Positions 37,467-40,898 of a stretch of DNA of 51,170 nucleotides are shown in pieces. The number at the start of each line of letters is the position of its first letter. The stretch's first letter is position 1. A program made the translations under genes and the position numbers. This DNA comes from Candidatus Nomurabacteria bacterium (GTDB taxonomy: Bacteria > Patescibacteriota > Dojkabacteria > SC72 > JAHDCA01). The DNA lies in assembly GCA_020632395.1 (NCBI GenBank), contig JACKFQ010000003.1:1-51170 (forward strand), in the 5' to 3' direction. Below the pieces are notes generated by a model. It did no database searches. It was not told where the DNA came from and worked only from the letters and a program-made list of their open reading frames with translations.

Positions 37467-37743
37467 CACTCTCCATAACTGACCACTCTCCATAGCTGAC
37501 CACTCTCCATAACTGACCACTCTCCATAACTGACCACTCTCCGTAACTGACCACTCTCCGTAACTGACCTCATGCCTGCCTTTGTGCAAACCCCGGGATC
37601 CACCTCGTGCCTGCCTTTGTGCAAACCCCGGGATCCACCTCATGCCTGCCTTTGTGCAAACCCCGGGATCCACCTCATGCCTGCCTTGATGCGAATCCCG
37701 GATCCATCTAGTGTCTGCCTTCAAGTTAAACCCCAGGCTTAAC
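37467..37743. repeat. Composite tandem array: 6 x 17 bp then 3 near-perfect plus 2 degenerate 35-bp units
   Basis: CACTCTCC(A/G)TAACTGAC at 37467-37568; CTC(A/G)TGCCTGCCTTTGTGCAAACCCCGGGATCCAC at 37569, 37604, 37639, decaying to 37743; no spacers. Confidence 0.95.
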
Positions 37744-37950: not shown

Positions 37951-39084
37951 ATGGCAGATACACAATCTGTGCAAATTCCCGCATTAGAAGAATTCTTAAA
38001 AGCAGGTGTCCACTTCGGTCATCGCAAAAGTCGATGGAATCCCAAAATGGAGGAGTATATTTACACCGAAAGAAATGGTGTACATATAATCGACCTCGTT
38101 AAATCAATGAAGATGTTGAAGTCGGCTTTGGAAGCGATGCAAAAAGCTGCTGATACAGGGTCTATCCTACTTGTCGGTACTAAAGGGCAAGCAGCATCTA
38201 TGGTCCAAAAGGTTGCTGAAGATAATGGTGCTTTTTATGTGAACACAAGGTGGCCCGGAGGGTTATTCACAAATTATGAGATGATACATAAAAGTGTTTC
38301 AAAGCTAGTGAGTATGGAAGAGCGTCTAGCCAGTGGAGCCGAAGATCTTGTCAAAAAAGAACAGTTGTTATTGGATCGAGACGTTGCTCGACTCAACAAA
38401 CTTTACCAAGGTATCAAGTTCATGGATAAACTCCCTGCAATGATCGTAGTTATCGACAGTAAACTTGAAAAGAATGCGATCAAAGAATCAAGGTTAGCTG
38501 GTATTCCTATCGTTGCATTGATAGATACGAATTGTGACCCTGATCTTGTAGATTATCCGATCCCTGCTAATGACGACTCGATCAGAAGTATAGGAATGTT
38601 CTTAGAATTGTTTGGAGAGGCTATAAAAGCTGGAAAAAGATCTGATAGGGTTATCTCATTAAGGCAATCTCATACAGCTAAACTAGATTCTCTTCGAGCA
38701 GAGTTTGAAAGAAACGAAGAACAGAAGAGACAGCAAGAAGAAGCTGAAAGAGAGAGAATGAAGAAGTTAAGAGCTGGTTTAGAGGTAGCTGAGGCTGCAA
38801 GATCTTCTGCGTCAGAGGCAAAAGTGGAGGAAAGAACAACAGTTGTTCGTGTGACAAAGAAAGATGACGGAAAAGAAACAGCACGCAAGGTAGAACCTAA
38901 GAAGAAAGAGAAAACACTCGAAGATCTTGGCATCAGTGGTAGAGTAGCATCAGCGCTCGAAACAGCAGGATATGCTAAGGTTTCCCATCTGGTAGAGCTC
39001 ACAAAGAGCGATCTAAAAGCAATAAAAGGAATAGGTGATGTGGCCGCAGATGAGATCCTAAAGGCGATCAAGAAAATGAAGTAA
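37951..39084 (+). CDS. rpsB: 30S ribosomal protein S2 with coiled-coil and HhH C-terminal extension
   Basis: AGVHFGH, WNPKM, RWPGGLFTN, DTNCDPD, PIPANDDSIRSI, plus about 150 extra residues. Confidence 0.97.
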   Translation: MADTQSVQIPALEEFLKAGVHFGHRKSRWNPKMEEYIYTERNGVHIIDLVKSMKMLKSALEAMQKAADTGSILLVGTKGQAASMVQKVAEDNGAFYVNTRWPGGLFTNYEMIHKSVSKLVSMEERLASGAEDLVKKEQLLLDRDVARLNKLYQGIKFMDKLPAMIVVIDSKLEKNAIKESRLAGIPIVALIDTNCDPDLVDYPIPANDDSIRSIGMFLELFGEAIKAGKRSDRVISLRQSHTAKLDSLRAEFERNEEQKRQQEEAERERMKKLRAGLEVAEAARSSASEAKVEERTTVVRVTKKDDGKETARKVEPKKKEKTLEDLGISGRVASALETAGYAKVSHLVELTKSDLKAIKGIGDVAADEILKAIKKMK

Positions 39085-39152: not shown

Positions 39153-39866
39153 ATGAGTTACACAGCAAAAGATATAGTCGCACTTCGCAGTAAAACATCT
39201 GCCGGAATGGCATTATGTAAGGAGGCTTTGGAGAATGCCGATGGTGATATGGAGAAGGCAGTCGTATATATTAATGAAAAAAGTGATGCGGTAAGTCGAT
39301 TACATAATATGACAGGAGCCAAGATCGGTCTTTGCAAAATAGCGTTCAAAGATGCTGAGGAGGATTTTGAAAAAGCACTTGATTTGATCGAAGAACGTGG
39401 ATGGGCTTCTGACCCTGTTGATACAGTAGAAAAACCTAAAGAGGGTATGATCGGTTCGTATGTTCATGGTACTGATCGCAAGACAGTTGCTCTAATAGAG
39501 GTAGAGTGTGTAACAGATTTTGTGGCTAAAAATGAAGATTTTATCCAATTTGCAAATGAATTAGCCAAGCAGGCTGCTGCTATGAAACCTGAATATGTTT
39601 CTGTCGATAGGATCCCGGAAGACAAACTCTCTGAACTTAAAGATCTGTTCAAAAGAGAGGCTTTGGAGGAAGGGAAGCCAGAAAATATCGTTGAGAAGAT
39701 CATCGAAGGTAAATTGAACAAGTTCTATGAGGAGAAATGTCTATTATCCCAAAAGTGGTTCAAAGATGACACCAAGACGATGCAGAGTTTACTTGATGAC
39801 GCAATTGGTAGATTAGGTGAGCCTCTGAAGATCGGAAGATTATTGGTCTGGGAATTTGGTAAGTAG
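39153..39866 (+). CDS. tsf: Elongation factor Ts, short form, with duplicated N-terminal UBA-like domain
   Basis: LRSKTSAGMALCKEAL, EG.IGSYVH, TDFVA, KPENIVEKIIEGKL; follows rpsB. Confidence 0.93.
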   Translation: MSYTAKDIVALRSKTSAGMALCKEALENADGDMEKAVVYINEKSDAVSRLHNMTGAKIGLCKIAFKDAEEDFEKALDLIEERGWASDPVDTVEKPKEGMIGSYVHGTDRKTVALIEVECVTDFVAKNEDFIQFANELAKQAAAMKPEYVSVDRIPEDKLSELKDLFKREALEEGKPENIVEKIIEGKLNKFYEEKCLLSQKWFKDDTKTMQSLLDDAIGRLGEPLKIGRLLVWEFGK

Positions 39867-40331: not shown

Positions 40332-40898
40332 TTGACTACAAGAAACTTTATGGATTTTGATCTATTTGATTCTGACCTTGAAAAATGTATTGAACACTTG
40401 AAAGAAGAGTTGGCACAGATACGAACAGGGAGGGCTACTGCCGAGTTGATCGAACCAATAAAAGTCGAGGCTTACGGGACTATTAGTCCGTTGAAGAATC
40501 TTGGAAATATATCTGTTTCTGACACAAGAAGTCTTTTTGTGCAGGTTTGGGATAAAGGGGTGGTCGAAAGTGTAGCAAAAGGTATAGATGCAGCTAATCT
40601 TGGGTTGAGCACAAGTATTGAAGGCGATGGAGTTCGCGTTCATGTTCCCGAGCTAACGGAAGAAAGGCGAAAAGACCTGGTCAAGGTAATGAAAGAAAGG
40701 GTAGAAACAGCTAGGATAAGTGTCAGGAATGTACGCAGAGATTATATCAAAATGATCGATGAGATGGTTAAGGAAGGAGAATTACCTGAGGATGACGGTA
40801 AAAGGTTCAAGGATGATATTGAGAAGAGGGTAAAGAAGACAAACGAGGTGATCGAAGATATGAAGGATACAAAAGAAGGTGACTTAATGAGCATATAG
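40332..40898 (+). CDS. frr: Ribosome recycling factor
   Basis: IRTGRA, VEAYG, PELTEERRKDLVK, ISVRNVRR; start TTG 40332 or ATG 40350. Confidence 0.96.
   Translation: MTTRNFMDFDLFDSDLEKCIEHLKEELAQIRTGRATAELIEPIKVEAYGTISPLKNLGNISVSDTRSLFVQVWDKGVVESVAKGIDAANLGLSTSIEGDGVRVHVPELTEERRKDLVKVMKERVETARISVRNVRRDYIKMIDEMVKEGELPEDDGKRFKDDIEKRVKKTNEVIEDMKDTKEGDLMSI

Follow-up and report, generated by a model that had tools for sequence, protein, structure and literature searches.

Ribosomal protein uS2 of a Dojkabacteria (CPR) bacterium ends in a predicted alpha-CTD-type (HhH)2 domain, a candidate tether to nucleic acid or RNA polymerase

In the 51,170-nt window, by which we mean the whole stretch of DNA analyzed, the rpsB gene (37951..39084, + strand) encodes a ribosomal protein uS2 with a C-terminal extension, which raises the question of what this extension is and what it might do on the ribosome. 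The ORF list and the translation give a single ORF of 377 aa plus stop, to which Pfam assigns the families PF00318 and PF03118. The extension reported by the first-pass annotation is real: positions 38620-39084 correspond to residues 224-377, position 38620 marks the end of the uS2 core, and the tail peptide that was quoted occurs in the translation exactly as written. Membership in the uS2 family is indicated by the gene order rpsB-tsf-frr, with tsf (39153-39866) downstream of rpsB and frr (40332-40898) downstream of tsf, followed by an RseP-like gene, and by a match to PF00318 over profile positions 2-216. The host, an ultra-small CPR bacterium, has a genome of 0.99 Mb that is 96% complete, and among named taxa Candidatus Dojkabacteria stand nearest to it. 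A 690-nt gap separates a HAD-like hydrolase gene from rpsB and contains two adjoining tandem-repeat arrays, one at 37467-37569 (17 nt x 6.1 copies, 96% matches) and the other at 37567-37721 (35 nt x 4.5 copies, 90% matches). Rfam assigned no leader family to rpsB in the window, where tRNAs were the sole Rfam matches.

We consider the anatomy of this protein, as well as its conservation, to be close to certain. In the AlphaFold2 model of the whole protein, which was built on a 30-sequence alignment and has a mean pLDDT of 89, the uS2 core of residues 16-228 (37996..38634; PF00318, 259 bits; pLDDT 94-98) is followed by a charged helical arm of residues 229-287 (38635..38811), a disordered linker of residues 288-320 (38812..38910) and an alpha-CTD-type (HhH)2 domain of residues 321-377 (38911..39081), all on the + strand. 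The arm is modeled as two helices, one at residues 230-274 (pLDDT of 94 or higher) and the other at residues 277-287. Its residues 229-252 are conserved with an LR....A.L pattern, the remainder is rich in E, R and K, and 26 of the 58 residues at 230-287 are charged (45%), with few hydrophobic ones among them. Judging from the monomer model, which gives one continuous helix at 230-274, an ER/K-type single helix would fit the arm at least as well as a coiled coil. The stretch of approximately residues 288-320 is predicted to be disordered (pLDDT below 50) and includes the conserved motif VVRVTKK at residues 298-304 (38842-38862, + strand; top-residue frequency 0.72), which may be a docking motif. 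Residues 323-376 are predicted to form a five-helix domain with pLDDT of 90-96.

By its sequence and its predicted fold, this terminal domain is of the alpha-CTD type. The best Pfam family on the tail is PF03118 (RNA_pol_A_CTD), which matches residues 313-374 with about 39-41 bits and an E-value of 7e-10 at a gathering cut-off of 23.8 bits; HHH_5, SAM and HHH_2 score lower and stay below their own cut-offs. In a phmmer search against PDB sequences, the Thermus alpha-CTD 1doq is the top match of the tail (E 2e-6); numerous RpoA chains come next, and the N-terminal domain of RAD51/RadA matches less well (E 0.004-0.02). A Foldseek comparison of the tail-only model with the PDB gave the RNAP alpha-CTDs 9dvu/9dvt, 5i2d, 1doq, 1lb2 and 3n4m as best matches. 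The alpha-CTD and RAD51 N-terminal matches have an rmsd of 1.2-1.9 Å over 55-58 columns and a Foldseek probability of 1.00, and the alpha-CTD chains reach a TM of up to 0.86 by target, while no E-value reaches 0.001, as is expected at such a small domain size. The five-helix (HhH)2 fold is found in both the full-length and the tail-only models as well as by Foldseek, the second HhH motif of the tail has the textbook form, and the G-x-G hairpin is invariant. The first-pass annotation had read the uS2 core as being followed by a charged coiled coil, a linker and an alpha-CTD/NusA-AR-like HhH domain; apart from the coiled coil, in place of which the model has a charged helix, this succession agrees with Pfam, phmmer and AlphaFold2, as does the proposed HhH/alpha-CTD fold of the tail with structure prediction and Foldseek.

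The domain is not linked to RpoA: it is carried by uS2, a separate RpoA of 354 aa with its own alpha-CTD is encoded at G000:C5, and these two proteins are the only ones with PF03118 in the genome. The tail HMM additionally detected a C-terminal HhH, preceded by a K-rich linker, in the NusA protein of the same genome (444 aa; L124:544-1878, - strand). In a poorly resolved phylogenetic tree of 106 domains and 67 columns, the 16 RpoA domains constitute one clade (SH-aLRT 90), and all 60 uS2 tails fall outside this clade and are intermixed, without strong support, with the tails of bS1 and NusA. In HMM cross-scores, the uS2 tails reach a median of 46 bits against NusA tails, 45-48 against RpoA and 48-55 against bS1 tails, and the bS1 and NusA tails score only 20-28 bits against RpoA. 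From the tree separation and the cross-scores we infer that the uS2 tail, although alpha-CTD-type, is not a recent copy of the RpoA alpha-CTD and is one member of a wider set of accessory (HhH)2 domains at protein ends.

To compare these groups residue by residue, we used the alignment positions that we take to correspond to R265, G296, K298 and S299, presumably the ‘265 determinant’ of E. coli. The R265-equivalent arginine is present in 100% of RpoA domains, 73% of uS2 tails (28/29 in the order), 45% of NusA tails and 0% of bS1 tails, and the K298-equivalent lysine in 75% of RpoA domains, 82% of uS2 tails, 58% of bS1 tails and 18% of NusA tails, whereas the G296 hairpin glycine is invariant across all four groups. 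As to net charge, the tails of uS2, bS1 and NusA have medians of +1, +3 and -3, respectively, and the RpoA alpha-CTDs a median of -4; the acidic surface of the AR-type modules of NusA is not found in the uS2 tail. In the protein studied here, R331 matches R265, G360/G362 form the invariant hairpin, the K298-equivalent position is occupied by V364 and the S299 position by A, and the tail domain has a net charge of +2.

The uS2 fusion is conserved well beyond this genome. Among 40 relatives, uS2 covers the query to approximately residue 375 in nearly all same-order genomes; split genes, which were considered for matches with stops inside, were rejected, as these stops are terminal stop codons only. 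Across 27 members of the order, the mean top-residue frequency is 0.76 in the core, 0.59 and 0.53 in the arm, 0.68 in the HhH domain and 0.72 in the VVRV(V/T)K motif, and 0.18 in the gap-rich stretch that precedes this motif, which places the HhH tail only slightly below the core in conservation. The first-pass annotation had made its reading depend on the tail adopting this fold and being conserved, and the tail is conserved across the order. The linker, in turn, ranges from basic to acidic depending on the family, and the leash is variable in length. In a collection of 5.8 billion proteins, the best 120 clusters at 90% identity all contain PF03118 together with PF00318 and, where named, are called ‘ribosomal protein S2’ only. 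The best 150 representatives of 50%-identity clusters from an exhaustive search have a median length of 336 aa, and 28 of them have the tail as detected by an in-house HMM; many of the other uS2 representatives among these closest 150, for which no taxonomy was available, show the arm but lack the HhH domain. In two relatives (G017 and G005; loci L019 and L032), uS2 ends just past the VVRV motif and has no HhH. Long uS2 matches at loci from outside the CPR, such as Mycoplasmatota zrk2, had no HhH tail either. A neutral appendage without a function of its own would be consistent with these two truncated proteins and with the absence of the tail from most sampled Patescibacteria; however, we consider it very improbable, given that HhH conservation across the order comes close to that of the uS2 core, that over a hundred 90%-identity clusters have the fusion, and that separate lineages have the module attached to various ribosomal proteins.

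The latter point comes from a survey of 301 Patescibacteria genomes, a sample that includes the unpublished G185, on which no claim rests. End-to-end matches to the uS2 plus tail profile were obtained in the order of the studied genome (family f4: 15/15) as well as in families f7 and f25, and direct inspection identified the same architecture also in families f12, f18 and f60. In at least 32 of the 301 genomes, the module is found on bS1, with four S1 domains followed by HhH and the profile covered to its end; these genomes belong to families f56, f29, f26, f42, f53, f21, f23 and f80, and include L119:391-1731 (+), L120:439-1740 (+) and L121:393-1709 (+), with 16 further tails at L125-L140. 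The uS2 fusion was found in none of the families with bS1 + HhH, and in the four such genomes inspected rpsB has no adjoining tail. The domain is present on bL21 in a genome of family f8 (G041:C3; L197:1492-2085, - strand; PF00829 + PF03118, 33 bits), where both uS2 and bS1 are without a tail. In one representative, the protein P0062 (L191:113-1018, + strand; PF03118, 52 bits), HhH stands at the N-terminal end of uS2, and its 2.2-kb contig shows the usual gene order rpsB-tsf-frr. Two ribosomal carriers occur together in no sampled family and in 0/10 genomes inspected gene by gene, and most of the sampled Patescibacteria have no detectable ribosomal tail. Since the module also occurs on bS1, on bL21 and at the uS2 N-terminus, its function is presumably not tied to the exact C-terminal position on uS2. 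A function specific to the uS2/bS1 site, considered as a separate candidate, is weakened by the bL21 fusion.

The variety of carriers also bears on possible roles within the ribosome, in which the arm and the domain would bind rRNA or a neighboring ribosome and thereby serve assembly, the stabilization of the reduced CPR ribosome, or the pairing of ribosomes in hibernation. In favor of such a role, several proteins and rRNA segments are missing from CPR ribosomes (PMC9297842), the ribosome could offer a docking site to the conserved beginning of the arm and to the VVRVTKK motif, and many uS2 representatives have the arm without HhH. Nevertheless, we regard it as quite improbable, because the leash is disordered and of variable length, and a module that is also found at the uS2 N-terminus, on bS1 and on bL21 is ill-suited to a fixed structural site.

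The NusA proteins differ between families in the structure of their C-termini. In the family of the studied genome NusA ends with a linker and HhH, in family f4 it has long acidic Glu-rich tails without HhH, and in two f2 genomes an internal HhH is followed by an acidic tail (NusA loci L161-L190). NusA carries the module in many lineages and does not carry it in family f4; a pairing of the uS2 tail with the C-terminal HhH of NusA was thus rejected as a general mechanism. A broader form of protein-protein coupling is that the uS2 tail docks on the RpoA alpha-CTD, in the same way as NusA AR2, or on the alpha-CTD site of NusA, and would constitute a hard-wired bridge between RNAP and the ribosome. 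We find this possible, albeit on the whole doubtful. It agrees with the grouping of the uS2 tails with the C-terminal (HhH)2 tails of NusA and not inside the RpoA clade, and with the presence of the RpoA alpha-CTD in every genome, which makes a partner always available. In the E. coli TTC-B complex, the KH1 domain of NusA contacts S2 and S5, and AR2 and NusA-N each hold an alpha-CTD (bioRxiv 10.1101/2020.03.01.972380), in line with the location of uS2 near the RNAP contact surface in coupled complexes to which the first-pass annotation had drawn attention. A uS2-tethered domain could reach these alpha-CTD sites, and the second frequent carrier, bS1, comes into contact with RNAP when mRNA is delivered (PMC12820379). 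However, the uS2 tail is kept in family f4 although NusA there is acidic and without HhH, and the HhH of NusA is therefore not a general partner; the large-subunit carrier bL21 is difficult to reconcile with a single, fixed mode of docking; and the uS2 tails, unlike AR2, are not acidic.

A further line of evidence concerns the translation initiation signals. The 16S rRNA of the studied genome (3' end on C12, - strand) keeps ACCUCCUU, that is, the anti-SD is kept. On crude ORF calls, SD-like 4-mers are present upstream of 61 out of 554 well-defined starts (11%) compared with 46/554 in a control window (8%), and G is not enriched at positions -12 to -6; the same script gave 64% vs. 15% for non-CPR loci, which served as a positive control, and 24% vs. 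8% for loci from the order. On the same crude calls, TANNNT hexamers peak at -21/-20 from ATG (60 each vs. a background of about 20), and also at -12/-11. The genome has almost no Shine-Dalgarno signal. The TANNNT peaks suggest -10 boxes at a fixed distance from ATG, and therefore very short leaders or leaderless mRNAs. The near-absent SD signal fits the idea that the tail aids SD-independent initiation. One variant of this idea is an mRNA-capture arm, in which the tail would bind the 5' end or leader of the mRNA beside bS1, the target being single-stranded or structured RNA. The scarcity of SD signal in the genome and the location of uS2 and bS1 together at the mRNA exit side, where each of them is the carrier in different lineages, are in accordance with such an arm, which we nonetheless judge unlikely: to our knowledge, (HhH)2 domains are duplex-DNA or protein binders and not single-stranded RNA binders, the four S1 domains of bS1 already serve RNA so that a further binder would add little, and bL21 is far from the mRNA path. 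The tail was also considered as a substitute for a missing bS1, which was rejected because the genome encodes, at G000:C3, a tail-less bS1 that has four S1 domains.

Altogether, the tail is most likely a flexible tether on the ribosome, directed either to nucleic acid (DNA) or to RNAP/NusA. The proposal of the first-pass annotation, a tethered module for binding nucleic acid or RNAP that may aid transcription-translation coupling or SD-independent initiation, is plausible. Our tentative preference, to which we give somewhat less than an even chance, is a non-specific tether to duplex nucleic acid, and most likely to the DNA beside RNAP. We infer this function because the HhH hairpin and the basic contact residues are kept, the charge is positive, and several attachment points are tolerated; a module that reaches its target from several attachment points would fit an extended and abundant ligand such as DNA or RNA. 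The rigid charged helix (about 58 residues) and the disordered leash (about 33 residues) connect the compact (HhH)2 domain to uS2, and the ribosome would use this flexible tether to grip duplex nucleic acid without sequence specificity. The likeliest target would be the DNA next to a transcribing RNA polymerase, the backbone or minor groove of which could be bound in the same manner as by the (HhH)2 domains of alpha-CTD and RAD51-N. Such a tether would keep ribosomes at the sites of emergence of mRNAs with a short leader or none, in an organism in which Shine-Dalgarno pairing plays hardly any part, and both the near-absent SD signal and the fixed-distance TANNNT boxes are consistent with it. 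Several observations make us cautious about the duplex tether, namely (i) the valine at the K298-equivalent position in this very protein, (ii) the R265-equivalent arginine, which never occurs in bS1 tails, (iii) the linker charge, which varies from basic to acidic between families, (iv) the existence of (HhH)2 domains such as NusA AR2 that work via protein contacts and not via DNA, and (v) the tail-less state of most sampled Patescibacteria and the truncation in two relatives, which indicate that the module is dispensable in some lineages. A more far-reaching scheme, which we regard as rather unlikely, is that in some Patescibacteria each ribosome has exactly one leashed alpha-CTD/AR-like module, mounted interchangeably on uS2, bS1, bL21 or other ribosomal proteins, which docks on the RpoA alpha-CTD, NusA or promoter-proximal DNA and makes a hard-wired ribosome-RNAP unit for loading leaderless or very-short-leader mRNAs where Shine-Dalgarno has been lost.

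Among known systems, the RNAP alpha-CTD (PF03118; 1DOQ, 1LB2, 5I2D, 9DVT) has the same five-helix (HhH)2 fold on a flexible C-terminal linker, and the uS2 tail retains its R265-equivalent arginine and the G296 hairpin; however, the uS2 tail is not attached to the alpha N-terminal domain, falls outside the RpoA clade, has no counterpart of the extra C-terminal segment of RpoA, and is slightly positive where RpoA is negative. The AR1/AR2 domains of E. coli NusA and the single tail of Patescibacteria NusA are, similarly to the uS2 tail, accessory (HhH)2 domains on a flexible linker of a gene-expression protein, and the NusA tails are mixed with the uS2 tails in both the tree and the HMM cross-scores, whereas the uS2 tail is not acidic and its carrier is a ribosomal protein. 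AR2 binds alpha-CTD and relieves the autoinhibition of NusA, a role known for NusA and not for the uS2 tail. In TTC-B, the ‘coupling pantograph’ of NusA links RNAP, NusA and the 30S body at S2/S5 through flexible (HhH)2 domains on long linkers, and the uS2 tail could reach the same S2/S5 region; in E. coli, however, it is RNAP and NusA that supply the flexible domains, with the ribosome serving only as a surface, whereas here the ribosome itself would carry the domain. The N-terminal (HhH)2 domain of RAD51/RadA, which is a non-specific DNA-binding module, constitutes the second-best group of fold matches (rmsd 1.5-1.7 Å), but its sequence match is weaker than that of alpha-CTD and its protein context is unrelated. 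Finally, extensions of CPR ribosomal proteins have been described, such as the Ala/Lys-rich tail of uS19 (Tsurumaki et al., 2022; PMC9297842), and the uS2 tail likewise extends the C-terminus of a universal ribosomal protein in a manner specific to CPR. The described extensions match no Pfam domain, whereas that of uS2 ends in a recognizable folded domain, and uS2 is absent from the enlarged CPR ribosomal proteins of the same study (PMC9297842).

The pair of PF00318 and PF03118 is visible in precomputed Pfam annotation and in this respect already known, while full-text literature searches, the coverage of which is incomplete, found no paper on a uS2-alpha-CTD fusion. New are the occurrence of the module on bS1, bL21 or the uS2 N-terminus in other Patescibacteria families, the non-overlapping distribution of the carriers, the position of the tails outside the RpoA clade, and the near-absent SD signal. 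These observations touch on two open questions, namely transcription-translation coupling outside E. coli and the finding of start codons without Shine-Dalgarno pairing, in a group of bacteria for which knowledge of the gene-expression machinery otherwise comes almost entirely from sequence. Here the ribosome itself would include an (HhH)2 domain of the transcription type, as a candidate tether to DNA or RNA polymerase in CPR. Even a mere non-specific nucleic-acid anchor, with one carrier per ribosome and a changeable attachment, would represent an unusual case of modular ribosome evolution. In a different type of architecture, three uS2 cluster representatives of 557-605 aa (P0045, P0052, and P0094) combine PF00318 with PF00889, and these uS2-EF-Ts proteins could be either real fusions or the products of rpsB-tsf read-through.
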